A program made the translations under genes and the position numbers. The notes beneath the pieces were generated by a model that did no database searches, had not been told where the DNA came from, and saw only the letters and a list, made by a program, of their open reading frames with translations. A DNA stretch of 64,000 nt from Acidobacteriota bacterium (GTDB taxonomy: Bacteria > Acidobacteriota > Vicinamibacteria > Vicinamibacterales > UBA2999), in contig JADZBZ010000167.1 in the NCBI GenBank assembly GCA_020851835.1, positions 13,128 through 77,127 on the forward strand, given 5' to 3'. Below are positions 18,044 to 64,000 of this stretch, in pieces (position 1 is the first letter of the stretch; every line of letters starts with the position of its first letter).

Positions 18044-18072
18044 GTGAGTGAGACAACCTGGAGGGTTGTTAC
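18044..18072 (-). promoter_or_regulatory. ECF-type promoter candidate, class 1: GTAACA-N16-CACTCAC
   Basis: Minus-strand reading is gtGTAACAaccctccaggttgtctCACTCACcgtcATG. It lies about 200 nt upstream of the MerR-type promoter of merT. Confidence 0.5.
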
Positions 18073-31621: not shown

Positions 31622-31650
31622 GTAATGCCCGAGCGGGATCCACCACTCAT
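31622..31650 (+). promoter_or_regulatory. ECF-type promoter candidate, class 1: GTAATG-N16-CACTCAT
   Basis: Read directly: cgTGTAATGcccgagcgggatccacCACTCATat, about 85 nt upstream of the dehalogenase start. Confidence 0.55.
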
Positions 31651-34116: not shown

Positions 34117-34389
34117 CTAACGGTCCTGCCGGCGGCTGCCATCCGGAGCCGTGCGTGCCGCGCGAAAGATCGACCGCGCGTCCTCCTCGGCGTCGGCAGG
34201 CCGCCGAGACGTCCGCCCCGATCGCCCCAGCCGGCGCACCAGCGCCACGGCCTGCCGCATCTGCAGAAGGTAGCGGCTGCAGTGCCGGCACATCAGCAGA
34301 TGGGCCCGTATCGCCAGCCGCTGCCGCCACGAGAGATCGCCATTGATGTAATCCGACGCCAGACGTGCGACGTCCCGACAACGCAGCAT
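34117..34389 (-). CDS. soluble ZAS (zf-HC2) anti-sigma factor 1
   Basis: MLRCRDVARLASDYINGDLSWRQRLAIRAHLLMCRHC has the N-terminal Cys plus H-x3-C-x2-C. 90 aa, no TM segment, directly downstream of ECF sigma 1. Confidence 0.7.
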   Translation of the reverse strand: MLRCRDVARLASDYINGDLSWRQRLAIRAHLLMCRHCSRYLLQMRQAVALVRRLGRSGRTSRRPADAEEDARSIFRAARTAPDGSRRQDR

Positions 34390-34393
34390 GATT

Positions 34394-34999
34394 TCACGAC
34401 TCCAGCCGGGCGGCCAGTGCCGCCCGTAGCTTCGTACGGCCCCGGTGCAGAAGCACCCGCTGATTCGTCTCGCTGATGCCGAGGATATTACAGACCTCAT
34501 CGGCGTCGAGGTCTTCCAGGTCTCGAAGGGACACTACCGTGCGTTGGCTGGACGGGAGGCCGGACAGCGCCTCGTGCACCAGGTCCAGGAGTTCCGTTGA
34601 CAGGAGCAGGCGCTCGGGCGTGACCTTCCATTCTCGGGGCGGCACACGCCACCCGCCGGCCGGGTCGAACGCGTCTCCGTCGGGTGCCGGGTCCCCCTCG
34701 TCGGCCATCGGGACGTAGCGGGCCTCCTTGACGGCCCGGCTCTTCGCCCGGTTGGCCAGGACCCGGAACAGCCAGGTCTTGAACGTGGACCGTCCCTCGA
34801 ACTTCTCGATGCCGCGCAGAAAACCCATCCAGGTGTCCTGCACGACGTCCTCGGCGAGCGCGGCGTCGCGCACGTAATTGCGCGCCAGACGGAGCAGGGA
34901 GCGCTGGTACCGCGCCATGAGGGGGATGAAGGCGTCCTCGTCGCCCGCCAGGACCTGGGCCACGAGCGCTTCGTCTGATTCGATTAGGGACGCGGTCAT
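34394..34999 (-). CDS. ECF (group 4) sigma-70 factor 1
   Basis: Region 2 AEDVVQDTWMGFLRGIEKFEGRSTFKTWLFRVLANRA and region 4 LPSSQRTVVSLRDLEDLDADEVCNILGISETNQRVLLHRGR. The sigma2-sigma4 linker is long. Confidence 0.85.
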   Translation of the reverse strand: MTASLIESDEALVAQVLAGDEDAFIPLMARYQRSLLRLARNYVRDAALAEDVVQDTWMGFLRGIEKFEGRSTFKTWLFRVLANRAKSRAVKEARYVPMADEGDPAPDGDAFDPAGGWRVPPREWKVTPERLLLSTELLDLVHEALSGLPSSQRTVVSLRDLEDLDADEVCNILGISETNQRVLLHRGRTKLRAALAARLES

Positions 35000-35071
35000 G
35001 ACCCGGACTGCCGGTTGCCGCAAGGTCGGAAGAAGGTCGAATCGTCTGTGCGACGAACCGCTCGCATGCAG

Positions 35072-35100
35072 GTGAGTGTCTCGGCAGGCCAAAGGCTTAC
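35072..35100 (-). promoter_or_regulatory. ECF-type promoter candidate, class 1: GTAAGC-N16-CACTCAC
   Basis: Minus-strand reading is ttGTAAGCctttggcctgccgagaCACTCACct, about 75 nt upstream of ECF sigma 1 (autoregulation pattern). Confidence 0.6.
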
Positions 35101-35179: not shown

Positions 35180-35797
35180 CTACTGGGGGAAATTGAGCAC
35201 GACGCCCCCGGTGATCCGGTGGCCGTACCGGTTCTCGATGCCGAAAAACCCCGGCGCGTCGTTCTTCGAGGCCACCGCGACGAAGCGATAGTCGGCGCGC
35301 ACCCCCCAGCGACGGTTCACGTCGAACTTGACACCGCCGCCCACATTGCCGGCAAAGAGCGTGGTGTTGTCCGTGACCCCCAGATCAGCCCGGTCGAAGA
35401 GCGTCAAGCCGCCCGCTCCGCCAGTGACGTAGGGGACGCCCCGGCGGTCCCGTCCGCCCGGATAGACGACCACGTTGCCGCCGTACGACGCCATGTGCGG
35501 CGGTTTGGCGTCGCGGCTGCCCGTCGGAAAGTCGAGCGCCTGATCGATCCCGATGTTGCCACCCACCTCACCCTCGACGCCGACGTAGCGATTGACGTTG
35601 AACGTGACGGACCCGACCAGGGTGTATGTGGCGAATGATGGCGCGCCGCTGTCACCTTGCGTGAAGTATGTCGTCCCACCGGGGAAAATACCGATCTCGA
35701 CCCGCGGCGTCTCAGTGGACTGAGCGTAGGCCGCGCCGCCAACGAGCATGAACGCGACGGCCAACGCCACCGCGATTGTTCCTCTCACCGTACTCAT
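35180..35797 (-). CDS. outer-membrane beta-barrel protein (OmpW/porin-like, 8-stranded size class)
   Basis: Signal peptide ...GGAAYA-QS, alternating amphipathic strands, and aromatic C-terminus (VVLNFPQ). Confidence 0.7.
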   Translation of the reverse strand: MSTVRGTIAVALAVAFMLVGGAAYAQSTETPRVEIGIFPGGTTYFTQGDSGAPSFATYTLVGSVTFNVNRYVGVEGEVGGNIGIDQALDFPTGSRDAKPPHMASYGGNVVVYPGGRDRRGVPYVTGGAGGLTLFDRADLGVTDNTTLFAGNVGGGVKFDVNRRWGVRADYRFVAVASKNDAPGFFGIENRYGHRITGGVVLNFPQ

Positions 35798-35847: not shown

Positions 35848-35876
35848 GTGAGTCCCATGAGGCTCAGGTTCGTTAC
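35848..35876 (-). promoter_or_regulatory. ECF-type promoter candidate, variant: GTAACG-N16-GACTCAC
   Basis: Minus-strand reading is ccGTAACGaacctgagcctcatggGACTCACct, about 50 nt upstream of the OMP start. Confidence 0.45.
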
Positions 35877-39176: not shown

Positions 39177-39205
39177 GTAATATGCCGGGCGCTGCACGCA
39201 CTCAT
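39177..39205 (+). promoter_or_regulatory. ECF-type promoter candidate, class 1: GTAATA-N16-CACTCAT
   Basis: Read directly: ccGTAATAtgccgggcgctgcacgCACTCATtc, about 100 nt upstream of arsM. Confidence 0.5.
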
Positions 39206-39302
39206 TCTTAGGTCGAGGTGTGAACGGCTCGTCTGGGCGGAGCCGGGCATCGCGCGCGATTGCCGGCTGCCTCAACTGGACGCGCCTTTGGAGGAGAGAA
39301 AC

Positions 39303-40481
39303 ATGACCGTGTTGACAGACCGCGAGCTCGACGTCGACGAGGCCGTGCACAGCAGGTATTCCGACGCCGCTCTGGCCCGGGCACCTGAGCTCTGCTGTCC
39401 GGTGTCCTACGATTCCGGCCTGCTCGCCGCGATCCCTGAGGACGTGCTGGCGCGGGACTACGGGTGCGGGGATCCGACGCGCCACCTGCGGCCCGGTGAA
39501 ACGGTGCTCGACCTCGGCTCGGGCTCCGGCAAGGTGTGTTTTATCGCGAGTCAACTCGTCGGACCCGCCGGACGCGTGCTCGGCGTGGACGTGAACGACG
39601 ACATGCTGGCGCTCGCCAGGCGCAGCGCGCCGCTTGTCGCTCAACACACCGGCTACGCCAATGTCACCTTCGGCAAGGCTCGCATCCAGGACCTCGCCCT
39701 TGATCTGGATTGTCTCGGGACGTACCTCGCCGCTCGTCCGGTCCGGTCTTCCGCGGATCTCGATCGTCTCGATGCGGAACTCAGACGCCTTCGCGCGGAG
39801 TCGCCGTTGGTGGCCGACGGGTCGGTCGACGTGGTGCTCTCGAACTGCGTGCTGAACCTGGTCCGGCCGGAAGACAAGTCGCGACTGTTTGCCGAAGTAT
39901 TTCGTGTCCTCAGGAGAGGGGGGCGCGCCGTGATCTCGGACATCGTGTCCGACGAAGACGTCCCGTCCCACATGCAGCAGGACTCGGACTTGTGGACCGG
40001 TTGCATCTCGGGCGCGTTTCGCGAGGACTGCTTCCTCGAGGCTTTCGAGACCGCCGGCTTTCATGGCATCGCCGTCGCGGCAAGGTCGGAGGTGCCGTGG
40101 CGCACGGTCAAGGGCATCGAGTTCCGCAGCGTCACGGTCATCGCTCACAAAGGCAAGCAGGGTCCGTGCCTGGATCACAAGCAGTCCGTCATCTATCGCG
40201 GACCGTTCCGTGAGGTCACCGACGATGACGGCCACGTGCTGCGGCGAGGCGTGCGAACGGCGGTCTGCGCCAAGACGTTCAACATCTTCGCGCGCGAGCC
40301 GTACCGGTCGCATGTGGACCTGGTCGAGCCGCGGGTTCCTGTCGCGGCCGAGGATGCTCGGTCGTTTCCGTGTGCGAAGGGCGCCCTGATTCGCGATCCC
40401 CGCGAGACCAAGGGCGAGGGGTACGACGTGACGACGGCACCGAGCGGTGCGACGTGCTCGCCAGACGGGGGGTGCTGCTGA
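39303..40481 (+). CDS. arsM: arsenite S-adenosylmethionine methyltransferase
   Basis: ATG after GGAGGAG. The four catalytic-type Cys contexts of ArsM are visible (ELCCPVSYD, DYGCGDP, LSNCVLNLV, LWTGCISGA), with SAM motif VLDLGSGSG, the ArsM C-terminal domain and terminal GGCC. Confidence 0.8.
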   Translation: MTVLTDRELDVDEAVHSRYSDAALARAPELCCPVSYDSGLLAAIPEDVLARDYGCGDPTRHLRPGETVLDLGSGSGKVCFIASQLVGPAGRVLGVDVNDDMLALARRSAPLVAQHTGYANVTFGKARIQDLALDLDCLGTYLAARPVRSSADLDRLDAELRRLRAESPLVADGSVDVVLSNCVLNLVRPEDKSRLFAEVFRVLRRGGRAVISDIVSDEDVPSHMQQDSDLWTGCISGAFREDCFLEAFETAGFHGIAVAARSEVPWRTVKGIEFRSVTVIAHKGKQGPCLDHKQSVIYRGPFREVTDDDGHVLRRGVRTAVCAKTFNIFAREPYRSHVDLVEPRVPVAAEDARSFPCAKGALIRDPRETKGEGYDVTTAPSGATCSPDGGCC

Positions 40482-41503
40482 TGTCCCGGACGGCTGCTCT
40501 TCAGACCGCGACGGCTCCGGAGGCCGTCGGCACGCCGGGCTTCGCACGAACGCTCACGGGGGCGGGCCTCGCGCCCCTCACGCGTGGCCACGTCACGACG
40601 CTGCAGGTCAACGTCGGCCGGTTGTGCAACCTGGCGTGTCATCACTGCCACGTCGAGGCCGGGCCGCGCGAGACCGACGTCATGCCGGCGCCCGTGGCGG
40701 CGCGCATCGTGGACCTGCTGGATCTGAACCCCGGCATCGAGATCCTGGATCTCACCGGGGGCGCCCCGGAAATGAACCCGAGCTTCCGCCATCTCGTTCG
40801 TGAAGCGCGGCGGCGGCAGCGGCGGGTCATCGACCGCTGCAATCTCACCATCCTGCTCGATCCCCGCTTCGACGACTTGCCGGAATTCTTCGCCGCTCAG
40901 CAGGTCCACGTGGTCGCCAGCCTGCCGTGCTACACGGCGGAAAACGTCGACAGCCAGCGGGGGCGCGGGGTGTTCCATGAGAGCGTCGAGGCTTTGAGGC
41001 GGTTGAACGCCCTGGGATATGGTCGCCCGGACTCCGATCTCCGATTGGACCTGGTCTACAACCCGCTCGGGCCGTCCCTGCCGCCGCCACAGTCGGCTCT
41101 GGAGGCGACGTACCGCGAGGAACTCGGCCGCCTGTTCGGCATCGAGTTCCACCAACTGCTGACAATCACGAACATGCCGATCCGCCGGTTCGCCTGGACC
41201 CTCGAGCGGAGCGGCCAGACGGAGGCGTACATGAGCCTGCTCGTCAATCATTTCAATCCCGCCACGGTGGCGGGCCTGATGTGCCGGACTTTGGTGAGCG
41301 TCGGCTTCGACGGACGCCTGTACGACTGCGATTTCAACCAGATGCTGGGGCTGCCGATCGGCGGCGCGGCACAAGCGGCGCCGCGAACGGTGTGGGACGT
41401 CGACGCTCTCGATGTCCTGACGGGACGCGCGATCGCGACCGGCCGCCATTGCTTCGGGTGCACGGCCGGCGCGGGGTCGAGTTGCTCCGGAGCGCTCCTG
41501 TGA
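40481..41503 (+). CDS. arsS: arsenosugar-biosynthesis radical SAM protein ArsS (TIGR04167-type rSAM/Cys-rich domain)
   Basis: LQVNVGRLCNLACHHCHVEAGP (CxxxCxxC) and C-terminal Cys-rich tail HCFGCTAGAGSSCSG. 1-nt overlap (TGATG) with arsM. Confidence 0.8.
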   Translation: MSRTAALQTATAPEAVGTPGFARTLTGAGLAPLTRGHVTTLQVNVGRLCNLACHHCHVEAGPRETDVMPAPVAARIVDLLDLNPGIEILDLTGGAPEMNPSFRHLVREARRRQRRVIDRCNLTILLDPRFDDLPEFFAAQQVHVVASLPCYTAENVDSQRGRGVFHESVEALRRLNALGYGRPDSDLRLDLVYNPLGPSLPPPQSALEATYREELGRLFGIEFHQLLTITNMPIRRFAWTLERSGQTEAYMSLLVNHFNPATVAGLMCRTLVSVGFDGRLYDCDFNQMLGLPIGGAAQAAPRTVWDVDALDVLTGRAIATGRHCFGCTAGAGSSCSGALL

Positions 41504-45505: not shown

Positions 45506-45534
45506 GTAATGTTTCGATCGACGCGGCCACTCAC
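45506..45534 (+). promoter_or_regulatory. ECF-type promoter candidate, class 1: GTAATG-N16-CACTCAC
   Basis: Read directly: ctGTAATGtttcgatcgacgcggcCACTCACac, about 70 nt upstream of the thioredoxin-family gene. Confidence 0.55.
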
Positions 45535-53687: not shown

Positions 53688-54131
53688 TCAGGCGTGCGCC
53701 ACGCGCACCTCGACGCCCCCCGCAATGGCGCCCAGCAGGCCGCCGTAGATCAAATGTCCGACGAGCGATCCCATGGCCGCCATGGCGCCGCCCATCTGGC
53801 TGCTGAACAGGCCGGCACCCATCATCGGCATCACGACCACCTGCGCCATGAGCCAAAGCCCCACGCCCCAGATGGTGCCCTTGACCGCCGGCGAACCCGG
53901 CAGCACGCCATACAGCCCGAAGGCGAAGATCGCCGGGAAGATCAGCGAGCCGTTGACGAAGTGCATCACCATGCCGGCCGACCAACTGTTGCCCAGCATC
54001 GATCCGAGCATGGCCGCGATGTCCATGTGAAGGCCCATCATGGGGGCCACGAGGTACATCATGGCCGTCATTGCCAGCGTGCCGAGGAAGCCGCCGAGGA
54101 TCGCGCGTGAGAAGTGTGGATGTGTCTGCAT
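53688..54131 (-). CDS. small 4-TM membrane protein (paralog of 31126-31608)
   Basis: Met-rich TM protein sharing HFVNG / GHLIYGGLLG blocks with 31126-31608. Confidence 0.55.
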   Translation of the reverse strand: MQTHPHFSRAILGGFLGTLAMTAMMYLVAPMMGLHMDIAAMLGSMLGNSWSAGMVMHFVNGSLIFPAIFAFGLYGVLPGSPAVKGTIWGVGLWLMAQVVVMPMMGAGLFSSQMGGAMAAMGSLVGHLIYGGLLGAIAGGVEVRVAHA

Positions 54132-54199: not shown

Positions 54200-54228
54200 G
54201 TGTGTGAGCGGTAGGCGGCCGGCATTAC
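54200..54228 (-). promoter_or_regulatory. ECF-type promoter candidate, class 1 (one mismatch): GTAATG-N16-CACACAC
   Basis: Minus-strand reading is ctGTAATGccggccgcctaccgctCACACACgt, about 70 nt upstream of 54131 and just downstream of the DoxX stop. Confidence 0.4.
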
Positions 54229-54239: not shown

Positions 54240-54707
54240 TCAGCCGCTCGTCCGAGTACGGGGTGCGGCTGACCCGCGCAGGAATCGGCGGGCGATCAGG
54301 TGATCGAGCGACACCGCGCCCGGCCCACGGATCAACAGAAACAGCAGAATCGAGGCCCACACCAAGTGCTCGTTCCAGGCGTTGGGATACACAAAGGTCT
54401 GGATTACTGCGATCATGCCGAGGAGCGGCAGCGTGGCGATTCGTGTCGCCAGGCCCACGAACAGGAAGATCGGGAACGTCAGTTCCTGCGTCATCGCGAT
54501 CCGAGCGGCGACGGCCGGATCCAGTAGTGGCACCTTGTACTCGTCGCGGAACAGGAGCAGCGTCATCTGCCAGGAGTGATACTTGATCAGGCCGGCGTTG
54601 AAGAACACCGCGCCGACGGCGATGCGCATCGACAGTTGGATGAGCGAGAGCGGAAAGCGCTCGAGCCGACGACGACCTGCCATGACGAGTCTAGCGATGG
54701 ATCTCAC
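54240..54707 (-). CDS. DoxX-family membrane protein (bufferin-cluster associated)
   Basis: RIAVGAVFFNAGLIKY...LPLLGMIAVIQ DoxX pattern. Start may be the internal ATG at 54683. Confidence 0.8.
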   Translation of the reverse strand: MRSIARLVMAGRRRLERFPLSLIQLSMRIAVGAVFFNAGLIKYHSWQMTLLLFRDEYKVPLLDPAVAARIAMTQELTFPIFLFVGLATRIATLPLLGMIAVIQTFVYPNAWNEHLVWASILLFLLIRGPGAVSLDHLIARRFLRGSAAPRTRTSG

Positions 54708-55488
54708 AAGTGTCCTCCGAAGCGGCGGTGAGGATTGACGTGACCAGGTCGTCGGTAAACAGGGCGGTGAGCGCGCGACCGGGGTCGAAGGAGTCGTCCC
54801 GATCGAGCGCGCAATCGGCAGCTTCGCCCAGTGGAATCGCCGCGTGGACGCCCTGCCGAAACAGGAACTCCGATTCGGACAGACGCGCGAAGTCGAACTG
54901 TCCGCGCGCGCCCCGCACCTGCAGCCAGATGTGCTCCGGCTCGAGCACCAGGTGCTCCGGCGCGGTGTCGGTCAGATACAGCCGCATCAGGTTGTCGATC
55001 GGCCACGCCGCCTTGAGATAGTCCAGGCCTGGTTGGAGTCGGAGCCGGACTGCCGTCATCGCGTCCGCCTCCAGCGCGGCGAAGACATCGAACGTCACAG
55101 CCGGCGTCTCGACCTCGATGCTGACCTTCCCCAACTGCCAGTCCAGCGCAGCGAAGTCACCGGCGTACGGCACGTGCGCCAGCTCCGACCAGCCGGAAAG
55201 CCAGGGAGGAAACGTCTCGCCGTACTCTGCCAGGCATGGCGCCGTTGGAGGGCATGCCTTGATGAAGATGCGGGCCGCCTCGATGAGCAAAGGCGAGCCC
55301 AGCAGCCAAGCCGTAGCCGGAAAGCGCCGGAGCAGTCCCTTGACCAGACTGGTCTCGTAGTGGCGATGATGGATCGCGAGCCGTCGCCAGCCATCTCCTT
55401 GGCCAGCCACCAGAGACACGTTCTCGAGGGCGTCGCGGCCGAGGACGATGGCGTCGCGCACGCGTTGCTGCAGCTCAGCGAGCGACAT
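54691..55488 (-). CDS. bufC: DUF2063 protein (BufC-type partner of the DUF692 enzyme)
   Basis: LAELQQRVRDAIV...LAIHHRHYETSLVKGLLRRFPATAWLLG, the DUF2063 N-terminal pattern. It overlaps the DUF692 gene 3' end. Confidence 0.75.
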   Translation of the reverse strand: MSLAELQQRVRDAIVLGRDALENVSLVAGQGDGWRRLAIHHRHYETSLVKGLLRRFPATAWLLGSPLLIEAARIFIKACPPTAPCLAEYGETFPPWLSGWSELAHVPYAGDFAALDWQLGKVSIEVETPAVTFDVFAALEADAMTAVRLRLQPGLDYLKAAWPIDNLMRLYLTDTAPEHLVLEPEHIWLQVRGARGQFDFARLSESEFLFRQGVHAAIPLGEAADCALDRDDSFDPGRALTALFTDDLVTSILTAASEDTCEIHR

Positions 55489-56341
55489 GGGGTGCCCCTT
55501 GGGCCGCCTGTCGGGCCAACACGCTCGCCAGGGTGGCCTCGTCAAGCAGATCGGCGAAGCTGGGCAGGTCGTCGTCCCACTCGATCAGCGTGGGCTTGGG
55601 ACCAAAGCGCCGCAGCGCGTAGGTGTAGAGACGCCACGCCTCGTCGGCAATGGCCGTGTCGTGGGTATCGACCAACACGCGGGTTCCAGCGTCAGGATCG
55701 TCTTCGCTCTGAAATCCGCCCAAGTGCAGTTCCCCGATGGCCTCCGCCGGCAGGCCGTCTAGGTAGGCCCGGGCGTCGTACCCGAGGTTCTCGGAGCTGA
55801 CGTAGACGTTGCTCACGTCGCACAGCAGCCGGCAGCCCGTCCGCCGGACCAGCTCGCCCAGGAACTCGACCTCGGTCATGGTGGATGTGCCGAACCCGAA
55901 ATAGCTCGACGGGTTCTCGACCAGAAAAGGCCGGCCGAGGCCGTCCTGGACTTGGTGCAAGTGCATCGCTAGGAGGTCCAGCGTTTCGTCGTCGTACGGC
56001 AACGGCAGGAGGTCGTTGAGGTACTCGCCTCTGTGGGTCGACCAGGCGAGATGCCCCGAGACGAGCACCGGATTCACGAGATCGATGAGTTCCCGGATTC
56101 GGGCGACGTGCGCCCAGTCCACGCCGCTGGCGCTGCCGATCGACACGCCGACGGTGTGAACGGAAATCGGATAGTCCCCGGCGAGCTGCAGCAGCAACTC
56201 GAAGGCGTGTGGATTCGCCAGGAAGTTTTCCGGATGGATTTCCAGCCAGCCGGCTGGCGGGCGGGTGGCCACCACTTCCGAGAGATGCGGAAGCCGTAGT
56301 CCGACTCCTGCGCGTGAGAGCATCTGGTGAGTTCGGGACAT
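55475..56341 (-). CDS. bufB: DUF692 / MNIO-family multinuclear non-heme iron oxidase (BufB-type)
   Basis: GVGLRLPHLSEVV...WLEIHPENF...VSGHLAW...FLVENPSSY...IGELHLGG, the DUF692 TIM-barrel blocks. Start at MSRTHQ. Confidence 0.85.
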   Translation of the reverse strand: MSRTHQMLSRAGVGLRLPHLSEVVATRPPAGWLEIHPENFLANPHAFELLLQLAGDYPISVHTVGVSIGSASGVDWAHVARIRELIDLVNPVLVSGHLAWSTHRGEYLNDLLPLPYDDETLDLLAMHLHQVQDGLGRPFLVENPSSYFGFGTSTMTEVEFLGELVRRTGCRLLCDVSNVYVSSENLGYDARAYLDGLPAEAIGELHLGGFQSEDDPDAGTRVLVDTHDTAIADEAWRLYTYALRRFGPKPTLIEWDDDLPSFADLLDEATLASVLARQAAQGAPHVAR

Positions 56342-56375
56342 GGTGGCCACCCTTTCGACGGAGGAACGCCGCGTC

Positions 56376-56642
56376 TTACTTGGGGCTCGTGCTGCCGCCG
56401 ACGATCCGAGTGCAGTAGCCCGCCGGAACGTAAATCCAGGCTTTCGGATCGCTGTTCCTCTTCGATGTGCCGCCGCACGAGTTGTTGCCCTCCGAGGCGC
56501 AGTCGTTCTGGCCGGCCTTGGCGATGCCGTAACACTTCTCGGCCTTGAAGCTCGGCATCTCCGCCGGCTTTTGCGCCCACAGGATGCTCGGCGCGGCCGC
56601 GGCCGCAGCGAACGCCGACGCGATGACAAAACGCTTGTTCAT
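56376..56642 (-). CDS. bufA: DUF2282 bufferin-type RiPP precursor (BufA1-like)
   Basis: 88 aa. Sec signal MNKRFVIASAFAAAAAAPSILWA, then a core with four Cys: EKCYGIAKAGQNDCASEGNNSCGGTS...YVPAGYCTRI. Confidence 0.85.
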   Translation of the reverse strand: MNKRFVIASAFAAAAAAPSILWAQKPAEMPSFKAEKCYGIAKAGQNDCASEGNNSCGGTSKRNSDPKAWIYVPAGYCTRIVGGSTSPK

Positions 56643-56702
56643 ACGTGCCTCCCCATTTGGCCGGCGATCCGGGCTTATCCCGAAGAACTCGGCCACATCC
56701 GT

Positions 56703-56731
56703 GTGAGTGCAGGCCGCGGGGCGGACATTAC
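56703..56731 (-). promoter_or_regulatory. ECF-type promoter candidate, class 1: GTAATG-N16-CACTCAC
   Basis: Minus-strand reading is ctGTAATGtccgccccgcggcctgCACTCACac, about 60 nt upstream of bufA. Confidence 0.6.
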
Positions 56732-56752
56732 AGGCCCGGGAGGACCACGGCT

Positions 56753-56781
56753 GTAAGGTTTGCCGGTCAACCGGCACTCAC
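56753..56781 (+). promoter_or_regulatory. ECF-type promoter candidate, class 1: GTAAGG-N16-CACTCAC
   Basis: Read directly: ctGTAAGGtttgccggtcaaccggCACTCACta, about 85 nt upstream of trx-sigma2. It is back-to-back with the bufA promoter, 21 bp between the -35 elements. Confidence 0.6.
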
Positions 56782-56867
56782 TAGCTGTGGCCAACGCGGG
56801 CCGGCGGCCGAACGGAACGAACCCGTGGGCGGCCCGCGCGAGCTTAAAGGACATCAGGAGAGGTGTG

Positions 56868-57242
56868 ATGCAGTCTTCTTCCTCCGTGGCCGCAGCCGCG
56901 GCCGAGACGTTTGATGACGTGGTCCTGGGCGGCGACCGGCCTGTTGTCGTAGACTTCTGGGCGCCTTGGTGCGGCCCGTGCCGGCGCTTCGCGCCGATCT
57001 TTGAGGCCCTGGCTGCGGAATTGCGCGATCGCCTCGACTTCGTCAGCGTCAACGTGGAGGCAGAGCCCGCTCTTGGCGACCGGCTGCAGATCTTCAGTAT
57101 TCCGACCCTGAAACTCTTTCGCGCGGGGCGCGAGGTCGCGAGCCAGGTCGGCGCGGGCACGAAGGATCAGACGAGAGCGACCCTCGAGCAGTGGCTCGCT
57201 GCGCGGCCCCAGGACGAGCCCGCGCCAGTCAGCCGGCCCTGA
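56868..57242 (+). CDS. trxA: thioredoxin (WCGPC)
   Basis: [18 protein letters not shown]...IPTLKLF. ATG after AGGAGAGG. Confidence 0.85.
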
Positions 57243-57310
57243 TGTGGTCGGTCGGAACGCCGCTCTTGCCCACGACAGTTCGATCGGCGGCCGAGCTTCC
57301 TCTCTATGAT

Positions 57311-57889
57311 ATGGGTGTGACGGATCCGCTGGCTCGGCTGCGGCGCCGCGAACCGGCGACGCTCCACGAGATCGTGCATCAGAACACGCGGCGTTTGTTC
57401 CGGGCGGCCCAAGGCATGGGCTTCTCCTCGGCCGAGGCGGACGATCTCGTCCAGGATGTCTTCGTGACGTTCCTGGAGACGCTCGATCGCTTCGAGGGCC
57501 GATCGCAGGTCAGTACGTGGCTGTTCGGTATCCTGCACCACAAGGTACAGGAGCGGCGCCGGTCGCGGGCGCGCGACGACCTGCACGATCCGGTCGACGA
57601 GCTCTTTGAGTCGAAATTCGACGCGAAGGGGAAGTGGATCGCGCCCCTGCCGTCGCCGGACCGTGTGGCCTCCTCGGCACAGGCGGCCGGCGCGATCGCG
57701 GACTGCCTCCAGGGTTTGCCGCCCCTGCACCGTGAGGTGTTCCACCTCCGTGAAGTTGAGGAACTGTCCGCGGCGGACGTCAGTAATATCATCGGCCGCA
57801 CCGTCACTCACGTAGGAGTGCTGTTCCATCGCGCGCGCCTTCGACTGCGCGAGTGCCTGGACGGCAAAGGCTGGAGTCCACCGCGATGA
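57311..57889 (+). CDS. ECF (group 4) sigma-70 factor 2
   Basis: Region 2 ADDLVQDVFVTFLETLDRFEGRSQVSTWLFGILHHKV and region 4 LPPLHREVFHLREVEELSAADVSNIIGRTVTHVGVLFHRAR. The linker architecture is like sigma 1. Confidence 0.85.
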   Translation: MGVTDPLARLRRREPATLHEIVHQNTRRLFRAAQGMGFSSAEADDLVQDVFVTFLETLDRFEGRSQVSTWLFGILHHKVQERRRSRARDDLHDPVDELFESKFDAKGKWIAPLPSPDRVASSAQAAGAIADCLQGLPPLHREVFHLREVEELSAADVSNIIGRTVTHVGVLFHRARLRLRECLDGKGWSPPR

Positions 57890-58125
57890 TGTCGTGTAAA
57901 CAGGTGTCCACGCTGATGTCCACGGGAGGGCTCGCCGACGCGCCGCTCAGGCAGCGCCTCGCCGTGCGTCTGCACCTGATGATGTGCGACAAGTGTTCGA
58001 CGTTCAAACGCTGGCTGGAACTGATGGGCGTGGCCGCGCGCGCGGAGAGCCACGCCCACGAAGACGAGGCGCCCGCGGACCTCGAAGCGCGCACGCTGCG
58101 GCGCCTCGAGCGGTCGCAGCTGTAA
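57886..58125 (+). CDS. soluble ZAS (zf-HC2) anti-sigma factor 2
   Basis: MMSCKQVSTLMSTGGLADAPLRQRLAVRLHLMMCDKC has the N-terminal Cys plus H-x3-C-x2-C. 79 aa, no TM segment, ATGA overlap with the sigma 2 stop. Confidence 0.7.
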   Translation: MMSCKQVSTLMSTGGLADAPLRQRLAVRLHLMMCDKCSTFKRWLELMGVAARAESHAHEDEAPADLEARTLRRLERSQL

Positions 58126-58140
58126 CGAGGTGTGCGGCGT

Positions 58141-58557
58141 ATGGGCCAGATTGACAAGGACCTCGGAACGCCACACGATAGGTCGGTGCGGTTGCAGCAC
58201 ACGATCGCGGCCCTCTTCCTAATCGCTGGCCTCGTCACCTCGAGCCTGGCGACGTGCGTCGCTGGGTCGATGGATTTGCCAGCGGCGCAGATGGCCTGCT
58301 GTCGCGCCGGCCACATGATGTGCGGCGAGAACGGGACCGCCGCGGATTGCTGCAAGAGCAGCCCACGCGTGGAGATGCCGTTCACGACCGTTGCGAAGGT
58401 CGTCTTGCACCAGCCGTGGCGTGCCTCGTCGGACGCACTGATTCCATTCGCCTCAATCGCCGCGCGTCCGGTCAGCCCCCTGGGCCGGCTCGACGGTCCG
58501 TCGCCGCCAAGTGTGCGGCGGTCCACTTACCTCCTGCTCTCCGTTCTTCGCGTCTAG
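58141..58557 (+). CDS. membrane-anchored Cys/Met/His-rich protein, unassigned
   Basis: ATG 58141 after GAGGTG. One TM (IAALFLIAGLVTSSLATCVAG), then AAQMACCRAGHMMCGENGTAADCCKSS. Lies between the anti-sigma 2 gene and the cusCBA-like genes. Confidence 0.5.
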   Translation: MGQIDKDLGTPHDRSVRLQHTIAALFLIAGLVTSSLATCVAGSMDLPAAQMACCRAGHMMCGENGTAADCCKSSPRVEMPFTTVAKVVLHQPWRASSDALIPFASIAARPVSPLGRLDGPSPPSVRRSTYLLLSVLRV

Positions 58558-58739
58558 ATCCCACCCGATTCGAGCGCGCGACCTCGGTGCACCGCCACGC
58601 ACGACCGTGTCGGTGTTGCCCGCGGCTGCGTAAGCGATCGGCCGCGCCGAGCGACCCCGCGGTGACCACCCGCGCGGTCCATCTGCCACGGCCATGTTCC
58701 CCGGACCTCGGGGGCGCGACAACAGCGGAGGAAACAGGA

Positions 58740-60110
58740 ATGACGTGCAGAAGAATCCGGTGTCTCTTCACGATCGACCAGGGGCTGCGACCTCCGCGAG
58801 GGTGGCGGAGGCGCGCCGCGACTGCCGCGACGGCGGCGGTTCTCGCAGTCGCGATGGCTCACGGGCTGACGGTCGAGGCAGCCCCCGGACAGAGTCCGCC
58901 GCGCGTCGAACAGGCGAACCCTGCGGTGGCATCGACGCCGCTCTCAACGCTGGTGGACGAGCTCATGCGCCAGAATCCGGACGTCCTGGCCGCCCGGAGC
59001 GCCGCGACCGCGGCGTCCTACGTGGCGCCGCAGGTATCGAGCCTGCCGGACCCGCGCGTGACGGTTCAGCAGATGAACGTCGGCAACCCGCTGCCCTTCG
59101 CGGGATATACCAGCAATAACTTCGCGTACCTCGCGGTGGGCATCTCCCAGGCGCTGCCGTATCCCGGCAAGCGCGCGCTGCGGGCGGACGTGGCGCGGGG
59201 CGACGCGGACGTTGCGACGGCGCGCATCGACGTCGTGTCGCGCGATCAGATCGAAGAGTTGAAGAAGACGTACGCGCGCCTGGCGTATTCACAGGCCGCC
59301 CTCGCCAACCTCGAACGCGACAATGCCCTCCTCCAGCAAGTGGAGCAGCAGGCGCACGCGCGGTACGCGAGCGGTCAGGGCAATCAGCAGGACGTCCTGC
59401 GCGCCCAACTGGAACGCACGACGATCCTGCGTGAGATGTCCTTGAACCGGCAGGCCAGCGGCGAAGCGCAGGCCGAGGTGAAGCGCCTCGTCCGGCGCGC
59501 GCAGGACTCGCCGGACATCGTGACCGAGGCGCTGGCGGCCACCTTCCTGCGGCAGACGCGCGCCGAACTGCTCGACGCGGTCCGCGCCGGGAACCCGGAC
59601 GTCCGCGAACAGTCGGCGGCCGTGACGCGCAATCAGACCGCCGTCGCACTGGCCGAGAAGGAGTTCCGCCCGGATTTTGGCGTCGCGTTCATGTATCAGA
59701 ACACGGGGCCGGCGTTTCCCGACTACTACATGGCCACGTTCGACGTCACGTTCCACCGCCACGCGCCCCGCGACGCCGCGCTGGCCCAGGCGCGTGTGAA
59801 CGTCGACCGCGCGGATCAGCAGCGGGATGCCGCGCTGCAGACCGCACTTGCGGACGCGCAGCGGCAGTACGTCATCGCGAAGACCGCGGAAGAACAGCTC
59901 CTGATCTACCGCGACGGACTGATCCCGCAGGCGCAGGCGACCATCCAGGCGGGACTCGCCGCGTATCAGGCGAACCGTGAAGACTTCCAGACGCTCCTCG
60001 CGTCGTTCGTGGACGTCCTGACCCTTGACCTGCAATACCAACAGACGCTGCTCGATCACGAAACGGCGCTGGCGCGCCTCGAACGACTCACAGGAGTGGC
60101 CCTGCGATGA
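58740..60110 (+). CDS. cusC: TolC-family outer membrane efflux protein
   Basis: ATG after GGAGGAAACAGGA. Signal-like N-terminus and two OEP repeats (LSTLVDELMRQNPDVLAA ... LLDAVRAGNPDV). Confidence 0.8.
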   Translation: MTCRRIRCLFTIDQGLRPPRGWRRRAATAATAAVLAVAMAHGLTVEAAPGQSPPRVEQANPAVASTPLSTLVDELMRQNPDVLAARSAATAASYVAPQVSSLPDPRVTVQQMNVGNPLPFAGYTSNNFAYLAVGISQALPYPGKRALRADVARGDADVATARIDVVSRDQIEELKKTYARLAYSQAALANLERDNALLQQVEQQAHARYASGQGNQQDVLRAQLERTTILREMSLNRQASGEAQAEVKRLVRRAQDSPDIVTEALAATFLRQTRAELLDAVRAGNPDVREQSAAVTRNQTAVALAEKEFRPDFGVAFMYQNTGPAFPDYYMATFDVTFHRHAPRDAALAQARVNVDRADQQRDAALQTALADAQRQYVIAKTAEEQLLIYRDGLIPQAQATIQAGLAAYQANREDFQTLLASFVDVLTLDLQYQQTLLDHETALARLERLTGVALR

Positions 60111-61756
60111 GTGCCGCCGACACGAACCACCCCACCTCCACGCAACACCCCTCCGATGGGCCGGCGACCGGCCAGTGGCATCGGCGCGCGTTCGCGATTG
60201 CGCTCGCGGGCTTCGTCGTCATGGCGGTCGTCGCCGCCGGCCTCGCGTGGCGGCTGTACACCAGCGGCGCTACGAGGCAGACTGCGGCGGACACGCCGCC
60301 GGCGGCCACCGTGGCCGACGCTGGTGCGTCACCGGAATCCACGATCGGCGCAACCGGACCAGGGCCGGCGTCGCAGCCGGCGCTGCAGCCGATTCAACTG
60401 TCGCCGCAGCGGCTGATGAGCATCGGCGTGCAGACCGGGGAGGTCGTCGTCAAGCCGGTCTCGCGGGAGATTCGGTCAGTGGGCAACGTCGTCGTCGACG
60501 AACGGCGGCTCTCGACCGTGCAGGTGCGGTTCGCGGGCTGGATCCATCAGGTGTACGTGGACGCGACCTACGACTACGTGAAACAGGGGCAACCGCTGTT
60601 CACGATCTACAGCCCGGACCTCGTGACCACGGAGCGCGAATATCTCGTCGCGAAGAAGAACCGCGACGCCGTGGCGTCGAGCGCGGTGCCCGGCGTCGCC
60701 GAAGGCGCCCAGGCCATCCTCGATGCCTCGGTGGCGCGACTGCGACAATGGAATCTGCCGCCGCGAGAGATCGAGCGCCTGCAATCGACCGGTGAAGTCC
60801 GCGCCGACCTCGAGATCGACGCACCCGCGACCGGGTACGTCACCGAGCGTCACGCGCTGCCGAACATGTACGTCCAGCCCCAGACGCCGCTGTATACCGT
60901 GGCTGACCTGTCGTCCGTCTGGGTCGTCGGCGAGTTCTTTCAGAGCGACATCGGGCAGTTCATGCGCGGCCAGCCCGCCACGATCACGACCGACGCGTAT
61001 CCCGGGCACGATTTTCGCGGCCGCGTCGACCAGGTGTACCCGCAAATCGACATGACGACCCGGACAGGCAAGGTTCGCTTCGTGTTTCCGAACGCGGATC
61101 TGAAGCTGACGCCGGGCATGTTCGTGACGGTGATGGCGAGCATTCCGATCGGCCGCGAACCCGTCGTGGCCGCGTCCGCGGTGCTGCACTCGGGCGCGCG
61201 GGACATCGCCTTCATCGATCACGGCGGGGGCTACCTCGAGCCCCGCGAGGTCGAGGTTGGACCACGCGTGGGTGATGAGGTCGTCGTGCGCAAGGGGCTG
61301 CGGGCGGGCGAACGGGTGGTGACGTCCGCCAACTTCCTGGTCGACTCGGAGAGCCAGCTGCAGGCCGCCCTCGGATCGTTTGCCCCGCCACCGCCTGGCG
61401 CCGGCGCGGCGGCGGCGATGAACGCTCCAGCGGCCGCCGCGACGCTGACGCTCACGACTGATCCCTCGCCTCCGCGGAAGGGCATGAACGCCCTTCGCGT
61501 GCAGGTCAAGGATGGGTCGGGCGCGCCGCTTGCGGGCGCCCAAGTCAGCGTGACGTTCTTCATGCCGGCGATGCCCGCGATGGGGATGGCGGCCATGCGC
61601 GCCGCCGCCGATCTGACCGAGCGCGGCGCGGGGACCTATGTCGGACAGCTCACGCTGGCGTCGGGCGGCACGTGGCAGGTCACCGTCGTCGCGCAGGAGG
61701 ACGGCCGCCCGGTGGCGCGGCAGCAGCTCTCGCTCACGGCCACGGGAGGGATGTAG
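60107..61756 (+). CDS. cusB: RND periplasmic adaptor (CusB-type) with C-terminal YtkA/FixH-like Met-rich domain
   Basis: HlyD-type barrel/lipoyl blocks (VQVRFAGWIHQVYVD...GQPLFTIYSPDL...). Extra ~110-aa C-terminal domain with FFMPAMPAMGMAAM. ATGA overlap with the OMF gene. Confidence 0.8.
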   Translation: MSAADTNHPTSTQHPSDGPATGQWHRRAFAIALAGFVVMAVVAAGLAWRLYTSGATRQTAADTPPAATVADAGASPESTIGATGPGPASQPALQPIQLSPQRLMSIGVQTGEVVVKPVSREIRSVGNVVVDERRLSTVQVRFAGWIHQVYVDATYDYVKQGQPLFTIYSPDLVTTEREYLVAKKNRDAVASSAVPGVAEGAQAILDASVARLRQWNLPPREIERLQSTGEVRADLEIDAPATGYVTERHALPNMYVQPQTPLYTVADLSSVWVVGEFFQSDIGQFMRGQPATITTDAYPGHDFRGRVDQVYPQIDMTTRTGKVRFVFPNADLKLTPGMFVTVMASIPIGREPVVAASAVLHSGARDIAFIDHGGGYLEPREVEVGPRVGDEVVVRKGLRAGERVVTSANFLVDSESQLQAALGSFAPPPPGAGAAAAMNAPAAAATLTLTTDPSPPRKGMNALRVQVKDGSGAPLAGAQVSVTFFMPAMPAMGMAAMRAAADLTERGAGTYVGQLTLASGGTWQVTVVAQEDGRPVARQQLSLTATGGM

Positions 61757-61758
61757 CC

Positions 61759-64000
61759 GTGCTCGCTCGGGTCATCGACTGGTGCGCGCGCAACCGCTTC
61801 CTGTTGTTCACCTTTACGCTGCTGCTGGTCCTGGCCGGCATCTATTCGCTCCGGCGAGTCCCGCTCGATGCGCTCCCCGACATCTCCGACGTCGAGGTCA
61901 TCATCCATACGCCCTGGGCCGGCGAGCCGCCCGACGTCATCGAGGACCAGGTGACGTACCCGATCGTGACGACCCTGCTCGCGGCGCCGCACGTCAAGGC
62001 GGTGCGTGCCCAGACGATGTTCGGCGACTCGTTCGTGTTCGTGATCTTTCAGGACGGGACCGATCTGTACTGGGCGCGCTCGCGGGCGCTCGAGTACATG
62101 CAGCAGATGGAAGGCCGGTTGCCGTCCGGCGTGCACCCGGTGATCGGTCCCGACGCGACCGGCGCGGGCTGGGTCTATGAGTACCTCGTGGTGGACCGCA
62201 GCCACACCCACAGCCTCGCCGACCTACGCAGTCTGCAGGACTGGTTCCTGCGATACCAGTTGGCGACCGTACCCGGCGTCGCCGAGATCGCCACCATCGG
62301 CGGCATGGTACGGCAGTACCAAGTGAATCTTGACCCCGACAAGCTGCGGGCGTACGGCATTCCACTGTCAACGGTCATCGCACGCGTGCGGGACAGCACG
62401 AACGAAGTCGGCGGCCGTCTTCTGGAGCTGGGCGGCGCGGAATACATGGTGCGCGGACTCGGCTATCTGAAGTCGTTGAACGACCTCGAAGACGTGCCGC
62501 TCGCGACGACCAGGACCGGCGTGCCGGTGCTGGTGAGGGATGTCGGCGACGTGTCGTTCGGGCCGGACATCCGCCGCGGCGTCGCGGAGTGGAACGGCGA
62601 CGGGGAGGCCGTCGGCGGCATCGTCGTGATGCGGTACGGCATGAACGCACTGGACGTGATCAACGGGATCAAGCAGAAGCTCACGGAGATCCGGCCGTCG
62701 CTGCCGCCGGGCGTGGAGGTCGTCGCCGGCTACGATCGGTCCGGGCTCATCCGCGACTCGATCGGCACGTTACAGCGCGATCTTCTCGAAGAAGCGGCGA
62801 TTGTCAGCCTCGTCATCATCATCTTTCTGTTCCATGTCCGGTCGGCGCTCATCCCGATCCTGACGCTGCCGATTGCGGTGCTGGCGTCGTTCATCCCGAT
62901 GTACGACCTCGGCGTCAGCTCCAACATCATGTCGCTCGGCGGCCTGGCCCTTGCCATCGGTGTGTTGGTCGACGCGGGCATCGTGATGGTGGAGAACGGC
63001 TACCGGCATCTCTCGGAGCGCCAGGCGATCGCCCCCGTCACGGAGTCCGAGCGCCACCACATCCTCATCGACGCCGCGAAGCAGGTCGGACCGGCCCTGT
63101 TCTTCTCGCTCGTGATCATCGTCGTGTCCTTTCTACCGGTGTTCTTGCTTGAAGCGCAGGAAGGACGGATGTTCAAGCCGCTGGCTTGGACCAAGACCCT
63201 AGCGGTCAGCTTCTCGTCGCTGCTGTCGATCACGCTCGTGCCCGTGTTGATGCTGATCTTCATCCGCGGACGGCTGAAGCCGGAGTCCCGGAACCCGGTG
63301 TCGCGATTCACACAGTGGCTCTATCTACCGATCCTGCGGCTCTGCCTGAGACACCGGCTGATCACGGTCGCGCTCAGCCTCGTCGTCCTGATCGGCACAA
63401 TTCCGTTGGCGGGACGTATCGGCAGTCAGTTCATGCCGCCGCTCTTCGAGGGCTCCTCGCTGTACATGCCCACCGCGCTGCCGGGCATCTCGATCACCCA
63501 GGCGTCGGGCCTGCTCCAGGCGCAGGACCGCATCATTCGGACGTTTCCGGAAGTCGCGAGCGTCTTCGGCAGCATCGGACGCTCAGATAGTGCGACGGAC
63601 AACGCCCCGCTGTCGATGTACGACACGACCGTCATGCTCAAACCGCGCGACGAGTGGCGGCCGGGAATGACCTACGAGACGCTCGTGGCCGAGATGGACG
63701 CCAAGCTCCAGATCCCCGGCTTGACGAACACCTGGACGATGCCCGTCCAGAACCGGCTGGACATGGAGTTGACCGGTATCAAGACGCCGGTGGGCCTGAA
63801 GGTCCAGGGGCCGACCGTTGCCGGCATCCAGCAGGTCGGCGCGCACGTGCAGCAGATCCTCTCGACGCTGCCGGACGTCCGGTCGATATTCGCCGAGCGG
63901 GTGGCCGAGGGCTTCTATGTCAACGTCGAGGTGCATCGGCCCGAGGCGGCGCGCTACGGCCTGACAGTGGCAGACGTGCAGCGCGCGGTGACCTCGGGCA
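61759..64000 (+). CDS. cusA: CusA-type heavy-metal efflux RND pump (5' ~747 codons; runs off the window end)
   Basis: GTG start. Collinear with E. coli CusA from memory (DALPDISDV, GPDATGAGWVYEY, LADLRSLQDWFL). The three Met of the CusA Cu(I)/Ag(I) triad contexts are visible (SLYMPT, APLSMYDTT, RLDMELTG). Absent from the ORF track because there is no stop in the window. Confidence 0.9.
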   Translation, partial: MLARVIDWCARNRFLLFTFTLLLVLAGIYSLRRVPLDALPDISDVEVIIHTPWAGEPPDVIEDQVTYPIVTTLLAAPHVKAVRAQTMFGDSFVFVIFQDGTDLYWARSRALEYMQQMEGRLPSGVHPVIGPDATGAGWVYEYLVVDRSHTHSLADLRSLQDWFLRYQLATVPGVAEIATIGGMVRQYQVNLDPDKLRAYGIPLSTVIARVRDSTNEVGGRLLELGGAEYMVRGLGYLKSLNDLEDVPLATTRTGVPVLVRDVGDVSFGPDIRRGVAEWNGDGEAVGGIVVMRYGMNALDVINGIKQKLTEIRPSLPPGVEVVAGYDRSGLIRDSIGTLQRDLLEEAAIVSLVIIIFLFHVRSALIPILTLPIAVLASFIPMYDLGVSSNIMSLGGLALAIGVLVDAGIVMVENGYRHLSERQAIAPVTESERHHILIDAAKQVGPALFFSLVIIVVSFLPVFLLEAQEGRMFKPLAWTKTLAVSFSSLLSITLVPVLMLIFIRGRLKPESRNPVSRFTQWLYLPILRLCLRHRLITVALSLVVLIGTIPLAGRIGSQFMPPLFEGSSLYMPTALPGISITQASGLLQAQDRIIRTFPEVASVFGSIGRSDSATDNAPLSMYDTTVMLKPRDEWRPGMTYETLVAEMDAKLQIPGLTNTWTMPVQNRLDMELTGIKTPVGLKVQGPTVAGIQQVGAHVQQILSTLPDVRSIFAERVAEGFYVNVEVHRPEAARYGLTVADVQRAVTSG

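Follow-up and report, generated by a model that had tools for sequence, protein, structure and literature searches.

Two divergent putative ECF sigma promoters between a bufferin operon and a thioredoxin–sigma–anti-sigma operon in an Acidobacteriota genome

What switches on a bufferin operon that lies back to back with the genes for a sigma factor and its anti-sigma factor? Bufferin-type copper-binding peptides are among the most widespread ribosomally synthesized and post-translationally modified peptides (RiPPs), but work on how they are regulated is limited to Caulobacter and, in an indirect way, Neisseria and Haemophilus. The question is raised here by a 79-bp segment (positions 56703 to 56781) of a 64-kb stretch of DNA, hereafter the window, whose source, a genome of Acidobacteriota (Vicinamibacterales-like), occurs in wastewater metagenomes. 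The segment separates the bufferin operon bufABCD, on the minus strand, from a plus-strand operon that encodes a thioredoxin (trx), a sigma factor of the extracytoplasmic function (ECF) type, called sigma 2, and a zinc-binding anti-sigma (ZAS) protein. The best explanation for the whole locus, which we consider highly probable, is that the segment consists of two divergent promoters for a single ECF sigma factor. This would most likely be sigma 2, released by its ZAS partner and serving a regulon of at least 12 sites.

Direct reading of positions 56400 to 57100 shows the two elements of the segment. The minus-strand element, directed towards bufA, reads ctGTAATG-tccgccccgcggcctg-CACTCAC from 56731 down to 56703, and the plus-strand element, directed towards trx and sigma 2, reads ctGTAAGG-tttgccggtcaaccgg-CACTCAC from 56753 to 56781. 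Both spacers are 16 nt long, and the gap between the two -35 hexamers is exactly 21 nt (56732-56752). An earlier note on this DNA had described near-identical elements on opposite strands with their -35 hexamers 21 bp apart, and its coordinates and description are exact. The copies have only the two blocks in common, and their spacer sequences differ. The putative promoter of the bufferin operon, PbufA (56703-56731, minus strand), comprises a -35 GTAATG (56726-56731), the spacer and a -10 CACTCAC (56703-56709), with a start site predicted at about 56697, which would leave some 55 nt of 5' untranslated region ahead of the bufA start codon, an ATG at 56642. Its counterpart, Ptrx-sig2 (56753-56781, plus strand), comprises a -35 GTAAGG (56753-56758), the spacer and a -10 CACTCAC (56775-56781), with a start site predicted at about 56788 and some 80 nt of untranslated region ahead of the trx ATG at 56868. 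Each -35 thus lies about 57-62 nt upstream of the predicted start site of the opposite promoter, so that two holoenzymes could probably sit on the region together. Scans of 56300-57000 and of the leader of a mercury resistance operon described below revealed neither sigma-70-type promoters nor terminators. A scan of the whole window against Rfam matched no RNA family, which argues that the untranslated regions hold no riboswitch or leader element.

The motif is strongly over-represented in the window. A search for GTAAKG-N16-CACTCAC with at most two mismatches gave 13 matches against 1.14 expected, a number that was reached in none of 100 shuffled sequences, and three of the matches are exact (45506, 56703 and 56753). 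With the spacing allowed to vary from 17 to 21 nt, TGTAA-N17..21-CACTC gave 6 matches against 0.02 expected in the window, all six with identical spacing. A group of 12 sites was retained, starting at 1331, 31622, 39177, 45506, 56753 and 57783 on the plus strand and at 4708, 18044, 35072, 35848, 54200 and 56703 on the minus strand. The spacer is 16 nt long in all 12, as in all strong sites of the related loci described below, and its sequence is not conserved. The sites have the anatomy of ECF promoters, namely two short blocks, a spacer of fixed length and a variable spacer sequence. Eleven of the 12 are intergenic and oriented in the same direction as the following gene, whose start codon is 46-90 nt downstream, or 227 nt in the case of merT. 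One match with two mismatches, at 28489 on the minus strand, was taken as a chance occurrence, and three weaker sites (35891 plus, 51449 minus and 34463 minus) score within the range of shuffled sequence and were not counted in the regulon. Those at 35891 and 51449 show a variant motif, GTAACG-N16-GACTCA(C/T), and the former, if real, would form another back-to-back pair with the site at 35848, with an AhpD-like gene on its plus side.

We searched for the motif at related loci, which are designated L followed by a number. The motif is kept in related soil and wastewater bacteria. Orthologs of sigma 2 with 53-68% identity are found in metagenome-assembled genomes of Acidobacteriota/Vicinamibacterales, and the four closest loci (L001-L004, 55-68% identity) all harbor GTAAnn-N16-CACTC at a distance of 80-160 nt before the sigma gene. 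The same search gave no match with a 16-nt spacer in 76 more distant or unrelated sigma loci (L005-L080). Among orthologs with at least 50% identity to sigma 2, the motif is found in or beside the gene in every locus. The L001 twin resembles that of the window, with a gene for the small membrane protein DUF6789 replacing bufA. A search with bufB retrieved the divergent layout of buf, sigma and anti-sigma genes in L085, L090 and L110, and a bufferin operon about 17-20 kb from the sigma gene in L114 and L115, on the contig of L002 or L003. The motif lies upstream of bufA, at the same place, in five Acidobacteriota loci (L085, L090, L110, L114 and L196), and a weaker form is present in a sixth (L115).

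Using an alignment of nine anti-sigma proteins (A1), we collected 80 more loci, which span Acidobacteriota, Gemmatimonadota, Krumholzibacteriia, Methylococcales, Pseudomonas, Rhodocyclaceae and Aquitalea (Neisseriales). Among the loci of this anti-sigma family, a strong site is found upstream of the sigma gene in 11 (L001-L004, L110, L185, L188, L192, L194, L195 and L196), a strong divergent site in 29, and both in 6 or 7 (L181, L182, L185, L188, L192, L196 and, weaker, L195). In the twin loci, anything from 12 to 188 nt separates the two -35 elements. The back-to-back arrangement thus recurs without being fixed, and this variable spacing argues against an obligatory interplay of the two promoters. 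Candidate regulon members that recur, besides bufA in the five loci named above, are an ArsM-like gene (L092, site at 1277 on the minus strand), disulfide reductases (L002 and L003) and DUF6789. L001 and some nine further loci (including L185, L188, L189, L192 and L195) have DUF6789 as a divergent, motif-bearing neighbor of the sigma gene. It is the most frequent such neighbor and may be a core target of this sigma family. In three other Acidobacteriota loci (L238, L250 and L251), the genes immediately after the sigma/anti-sigma pair encode ArsS and methyltransferases. The claim of the earlier note that one sigma factor would drive both its own operon and the bufferin operon is borne out, at the level of sequence, by these sites upstream of sigma (11 loci), divergent from it (29 loci) and upstream of bufA.

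The -10 element varies with the clade. It is CACTCA(C/T) in Acidobacteriota and CAATAAC in the Gemmatimonadota members, and a betaproteobacterial (Rhodocyclaceae) locus of the anti-sigma family (L246) contains two GTAAKn-N16-GGTCTAA sites (3006 minus and 4368 plus), among them GTAATG-N16-GGTCTAA, with a -10 of the Neisseria type. Since the -35 and the spacing are shared at L246 and the -10 is changed, CACTCA(C/T) appears as a clade-specific variant of the -10. As read from these loci, the CACTCAC -10 is specific to Acidobacteriota, which is new.

Which sigma factor reads these sites? Sigma 2, whose gene directly precedes that of its ZAS partner, is the simplest answer. The anti-sigma protein has no hydrophobic segment, and its residues M1, C4, V7, H30, L31, M33, C34 and C37 are invariant in all nine aligned relatives of A1, which upholds the view of the earlier note that the partner is a soluble ZAS protein. 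On the NCBIfam model NF052368 ('antisigmaE'), its score is 49.3 bits for a cut-off of 50. The nearest NCBIfam models of sigma 2, PRK11922 and TIGR02943, both stay under their cut-offs, and its relatives in the PDB are generic ECF factors (CnrH, SigW and RpoE). The main text of the ECF re-classification paper holds no description that matches sigma 2 to a numbered group; relatives from Neisseria and Haemophilus have been assigned to 'ECF group 13' (PMC7907618).

Several observations weigh against the assignment of the sites to an autoregulated, thiol-responsive sigma 2. A weight matrix gives the 12 sites scores of at least 20 and the remainder of the window at most 13.5, a clean gap that is circular as a test, the matrix being derived from the window's own 12 sites. 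The window sequence is present in DNA runs of wastewater metagenomes only, with no RNA run among the runs that list it. In the Neisseria SigE–MseR system, which has a similar anti-sigma factor, oxidants are not inducing, which makes the signal here uncertain (PMC2893595), and the -10 CACTCA(C/T) of the window differs from the experimentally defined CGTCTAA of Neisseria, so that specificity is not directly transferable. The remaining points concern a second sigma factor, sigma 1 (34394-35002, minus strand), with 35% identity to sigma 2. The sigma 1/anti-sigma 1 pair is clearly paralogous to that of sigma 2, and sigma 1 could read the same promoters; its own start is preceded, at 70 nt, by such a site, GTAAGC-N16-CACTCAC.

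The sites might thus be read by sigma 1, or by both sigma factors, and form a two-sigma network instead of a simple autoregulation of sigma 2, an alternative that we consider unlikely, though the strongest of those weighed here. The ZAS partner of sigma 1 (34117-34389, 90 residues) has C4, H30, C34 and C37 at the same positions as anti-sigma 2 and passes the NF052368 cut-off with 59.5 bits, and sigma-1-like genes adjoin bufferin operons in L089, L091 and L095. However, sigma 1 orthologs (45-56% identity, from other phyla) lack the upstream motif, a difference that is suggestive only, whereas all the sigma 2 orthologs of at least 50% identity carry the motif in or beside the gene. Moreover, a variant GTAACG-N16-GACTCA(C/T) is found near sigma-1-type genes, at 35848 (minus) in the window and in L091 (3451), L092 (2190) and L161 (2000), which hints at a separate specificity of sigma 1. 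The simplest reading has sigma 2 recognize the TGTAAK...CACTCA sites, with sigma 1 among its targets, in which case the site upstream of sigma 1 may point to a sigma cascade. The paralogous pair at 34117-35002, which could share the motif, was not in the earlier note.

A different view of the twin is that the two elements are half-sites of one palindromic operator for a dimeric metal sensor of the MerR or ArsR type, and not promoters. A repeat search indeed scores the pair as an inverted repeat with 31-nt arms that are 71% complementary, and the window contains a MerR-family gene (770-1201). The ten other sites of the window and most sites of the related loci are single, oriented and without a partner arm, however, the copies of the twin loci are 12 to 188 nt apart, and only two short blocks at a fixed 16 nt are conserved, as in an ECF promoter. 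We consequently hold this view to be very improbable. That the matches arose by chance or from a dispersed repeat without regulatory role, as their short conserved blocks with nothing more might suggest, has next to no probability, being already contradicted by the counts (13 against 1.1 and 6 against 0.02 expected), by a position and orientation conserved across genomes of several phyla and by spacers that, for want of conservation, do not behave as parts of a mobile repeat. Such cross-genome conservation is the pattern of a cognate ECF promoter, and the operator and repeat readings were rejected on the grounds of single oriented sites, variable gaps and unconserved spacers.

With sigma 2 promoters as the preferred reading, the genes downstream of the other sites reveal what the regulon may do. 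Starting from the left end of the window, the site at 1331-1359 (plus) is upstream of an NmrA-like reductase gene, and that at 4708-4736 (minus) is upstream of a DUF255/DsbH thioredoxin-domain protein gene (2302-4584). The site at 18044-18072 (minus, GTAACA-N16-CACTCAC) precedes a complete merT-merP-merF-merA operon (15065-17817) and is the one that lies 227 nt before merT; the MerA protein scores 906 bits on NF010311. No merR gene was found beside this operon, whose divergent neighbor looks like a transketolase gene, and the MerR-family gene at 770-1201, the sole one in the window, is 16 kb away and below the cut-off of the MerR model. Control of mercury resistance by an ECF/ZAS sigma system instead of MerR would be unusual. 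The mer leader also holds a small possible membrane open reading frame (ORF). Further sites lie upstream of genes for an alpha/beta hydrolase and a pyridine-nucleotide disulfide oxidoreductase (31622-31650, plus), of sigma 1 and its ZAS anti-sigma (35072-35100, minus) and, in the variant form GTAACG-N16-GACTCAC, of an outer-membrane beta-barrel protein gene (35848-35876, minus; gene at 35180-35797). The site at 39177-39205 (plus) precedes genes for an ArsM-like methyltransferase and the arsenosugar radical-SAM protein ArsS (TIGR04167, 434 bits) in the region 39177-41503. The exact match at 45506-45534 (plus) is upstream of genes for an exported thioredoxin, a DsbD_TM protein and a flavoprotein oxidoreductase, and the site at 54200-54228 (minus, GTAATG-N16-CACACAC) lies 69 nt before a DUF6789 gene (53688-54131, minus). 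Judging from these downstream genes, the two copies of the twin belong to a regulon of soft-metal and thiol-stress genes whose sites are concentrated here. We infer a large regulon of this kind, with at least 12 promoters and including a merTPFA operon without adjacent merR, which is new; that the twin is two of at least 12 sites had escaped the earlier note. Elsewhere in the window, a third ZAS-like (zf-HC2) ORF of 103 residues (5675-5986, minus; Pfam E 2.3e-8) is located just upstream of a nucleotidyl-transferase gene, with no sigma gene adjoining.

The genes on the two sides of the twin are those that the earlier note had named, as determined with Pfam: DUF2282, DUF692, DUF2063 and DoxX on the minus strand, and thioredoxin, ECF sigma and a zf-HC2-like protein on the plus strand. 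The minus-strand genes form a complete Buf1-type cluster, in that order, with all four Pfam families above cut-off. BufA (56376-56642; PF10048, E 1.3e-22) is a DUF2282 bufferin precursor of 88 residues with a signal peptide and four Cys; bufB (55475-56344, start approximate; PF05114, E 4.7e-92) encodes the modification enzyme of the MNIO family (MbnB/TglH/ChrH, formerly DUF692); bufC (54691-55545; PF09836, E 3.1e-12) encodes the DUF2063 partner protein; and bufD (54240-54707; PF07681) encodes a DoxX membrane protein. This gene order recurs in about 70 related loci. The plus-strand operon begins with the thioredoxin gene (56868-57242; WCGPC motif; PF00085, E 8e-27), followed by sigma 2 (57317-57889; 190 residues, GTG start, Pfam Sigma70_r2 and r4_2). 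The anti-sigma gene comes next (57886-58125; 79 residues with Cys4/His30/Cys34/Cys37, weak Pfam zf-HC2 match), its ATG overlapping the sigma 2 stop codon (ATGA). Beyond it, a 141-residue Cys/Met/His-rich ORF (58132-58557, plus), with the stretches MACCRAGHMMCGENGTAADCC, lies between the anti-sigma and efflux genes; neither Pfam nor NCBIfam gives a match for it, and its product may be a metal-binding accessory protein. The efflux genes, also on the plus strand, encode an outer-membrane factor (58740-60110, Pfam OEP), a membrane-fusion protein (60107-61756, TIGR01730) and a resistance-nodulation-division (RND) pump of the CusA/CzcA family (from 61780 to the window end, where it is cut at 64000; TIGR00914, 785 bits). 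The sigma operon probably continues into these efflux genes (58132-64000), between which there is neither a motif nor a long gap, and HlyD-RND genes likewise follow the sigma/anti-sigma pair in L001.

Two further putative promoters, at 57305-57310 and 57783-57811, both new and absent from the earlier note, are observed within the sigma operon. The first is a TATGAT -10-like hexamer (57305-57310, plus), 6 nt before the GTG start of sigma 2 at 57317, which could belong to a promoter of the housekeeping sigma factor. A TAyrAT box is found 5-10 nt before the sigma start codon, GTG or rarely ATG, in 17 of 17 orthologs with at least 53% identity, a conservation that suggests a housekeeping-type promoter giving a leaderless sigma/anti-sigma mRNA.

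The second is the only one of the 12 sites that lies inside a gene. It reads GTAATA-N16-CACTCAC (57783-57811, plus), precedes the anti-sigma ATG by 68 nt and falls in the codons of sigma 2 region 4.2, whose helix recognizes the -35 element. The codons involved are AGT AAT ATC ... ACT CAC, among which AGT and ACT are rare (4.7% of Ser and 4.1% of Thr codons in the window). A site is present at the same codons, about 90-105 nt before the sigma stop codon, in 23 related loci (L183, L184, L186, L187, L189, L197, L200, L201, L204, L214 and 13 more), all of which lack the upstream site. The internal GTAA is kept despite Ser/Cys/Gly and Asn/Lys replacements, and the embedded -10 follows that of the clade (CACTCAC or CACTAAC in Acidobacteriota, CAATAAC in Gemmatimonadota), which may mean that promoter and protein sequence constrain each other. 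Among orthologs with at least 50% identity, 12 have the upstream site and 10 the internal site; the window alone combines the two, and no locus is without either. For this exclusivity, Fisher's exact test gives p = 3e-5, a value that overstates independence, the loci being phylogenetically related. We have moderate confidence that the internal site is a real promoter, which would feed only the anti-sigma and downstream genes in a negative feedback. This arrangement resembles that of Escherichia coli rpoE, in which an internal sigma-E-dependent promoter (rseAp3) serves rseA, so that a sigma-dependent promoter within the sigma gene feeds the anti-sigma as negative feedback. Unlike in E. coli, the site lies here in the DNA of region 4.2 and, among orthologs of at least 50% identity other than the window, is exclusive with the upstream promoter.

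From the motif with its excess, position, orientation and conservation across genomes, and from the identities of the genes, a course of events can be proposed in which the binding sigma factor, the inducing signal, the transcription starts and the feedback loops are predictions. The promoters, in which a fixed 16-nt spacer separates a -35 TGTAAK(G) from a -10 CACTCA(C/T), would be recognized by sigma 2, encoded 0.5 kb to the right. The left promoter would serve bufABCD, the copper-binding bufferin RiPP operon, and the right promoter trx, sigma 2 and the anti-sigma, probably reading on into the CusCBA/Czc-like efflux genes. Under no stress, sigma 2 would be held by the 79-residue cytoplasmic zinc-binding ZAS protein. 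A thiol-reactive stress, for which an oxidant (HOCl or H2O2), an electrophile or a thiophilic metal (Cu, Hg, As, Cd) are candidates, would attack the zinc site formed by Cys4, Cys34 and Cys37 and release sigma 2. Free sigma 2 would fire both twin promoters and at least ten others in the window, with merTPFA, arsM/arsS-like genes, thioredoxins, a DsbD-like protein, disulfide reductases, DUF6789, the outer-membrane protein and sigma 1 as further targets. The system might then be reset by the co-induced thioredoxin, by the co-transcribed anti-sigma and by the internal sigma-type promoter feeding the anti-sigma, while the leaderless-type promoter before the sigma gene would supply a basal pool of sigma and anti-sigma.

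Taken together, these features suggest a feedback promoter with two alternative homes (upstream of the sigma gene or within region 4.2), a co-constraint of promoter and protein, and a single thiol/zinc sensor that coordinates Cu, Hg and As defences with thiol repair, a combined picture that we put forward tentatively, as falling somewhat short of probable. The pattern of upstream versus gene-internal feedback promoters amounts to a testable design rule for ECF circuits. The locus supplies a promoter motif and a candidate regulon for a bufferin cluster in Acidobacteriota, a major and little-cultured soil phylum, and would tie this cluster, through one cytoplasmic ZAS sensor, to genes of mercury, arsenic and thiol stress. 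With a 225-bp bidirectional fragment and a small sigma/anti-sigma pair, it is compact and amenable to direct testing in a heterologous host.

How does this locus compare with known systems? Like Streptomyces SigR–RsrA, a system of thiol-oxidative stress, it has a thioredoxin in the regulon, located here within the sigma operon itself. The SigR promoter, GGAAT-N18-GTT, is unlike the present motif. To our knowledge, SigR–RsrA is confined to Actinobacteria and has no link to RiPPs or metal efflux. Anti-sigma 2 does not match the RsrA equivalog model TIGR03988, on which anti-sigma 1 scores 22 bits for a cut-off of 62.5. A soluble, redox-sensing anti-sigma with the ZAS spacing C-x25-H-x3-C-x2-C is nevertheless a shared feature (PMC2893595 for the spacing).

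Caulobacter comes closer. There, the ECF factor SigF and its anti-sigma NrsF control buf1 and buf2 in the response to metal stress (PMC11626156, PMC3511200). The SigF motif is GTAACC-N16-CGAA, NrsF is a DUF1109 anti-sigma with six transmembrane segments, and SigF is reportedly not strongly autoregulated (PMC3511200). The earlier note had described SigF, its GTAACC-type -35 and its membrane anti-sigma correctly (PMC3511200), but this is not the nearest relative. The likeness lies in an ECF sigma that drives, or here would drive, a DUF2282-DUF692-DUF2063-DoxX operon, in a -35 that starts with GTAA and in the 16-nt spacer. In contrast, the -10 is CGAA in Caulobacter and CACTCAC here, and NrsF is a membrane protein with periplasmic Cys whereas the present anti-sigma is a soluble zf-HC2/antisigmaE-like protein of 79 residues. 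In surveys of bufferin and MNIO clusters, Buf1 clusters are recorded with sigma and NrsF genes, and ZAS partners go unmentioned (PMC12452194).

Neisseria and Haemophilus offer a known precedent, which the earlier note did not mention, for a ZAS anti-sigma paired with a DUF692/DUF2063/DoxX operon. In N. meningitidis, MseR is a ZAS anti-sigma with Cys4/His30/Cys34/Cys37, of which the three Cys are needed for anti-sigma activity, and the sigma-E operon NMB2140-2145 includes a DoxX gene and three then-unnamed genes (PMC2893595). The gonococcal operon is composed of NGO1948 (DoxX), NGO1947 (periplasmic), NGO1946 (DUF692), NGO1945 (DUF2063), NGO1944 (ECF sigma) and NGO1943 (PMC2954202), and this DUF692/DUF2063 operon makes a copper-binding peptide, gonophorin (PMC12668002). 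In H. influenzae, RpoE2 and the 67-residue cytoplasmic ZAS protein HrsE respond to HOCl and H2O2, and RpoE2 scarcely autoregulates (PMC7907618), a weak or absent autoregulation that recalls the many relatives here without an upstream site. The short cytoplasmic ZAS proteins of the pairs SigE (NMB2144/NGO1944)–MseR (NMB2145) and RpoE2–HrsE have their Cys and His at positions identical to those of anti-sigma 2; their sigma/anti-sigma genes are coupled to a cluster of DoxX, periplasmic Cys-peptide, DUF692 and DUF2063 genes; and their regulons include thiol and oxidant-repair genes. The Neisseria SigE promoter consensus is -35 GTMAGBWTT and -10 CGTCTAAH (PMC2893595). The plus site of the twin, GTAAGGTTT, fits this -35 and the minus site, GTAATGTCC, fits it partly, with the same 22-nt register from -35 to -10. 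The likeness to Neisseria is one of anti-sigma residues, gene linkage and promoter. There are differences besides the -10: the RiPP and sigma operons diverge here and are co-transcribed in Neisseria, the precursor is of the DUF2282 (Buf1) type instead of the EGKCG-repeat type of Neisseria and Haemophilus, the phylum is Acidobacteriota, and the putative regulon has at least 12 promoters in 57 kb, including mer, ars-like and RND efflux genes, compared with about two transcription units in Neisseria and Haemophilus. On the sequence evidence, the locus may thus be described as an ECF/ZAS-controlled metallophore operon of the Neisseria/Haemophilus type, the closest known system and nearer than that of Caulobacter.

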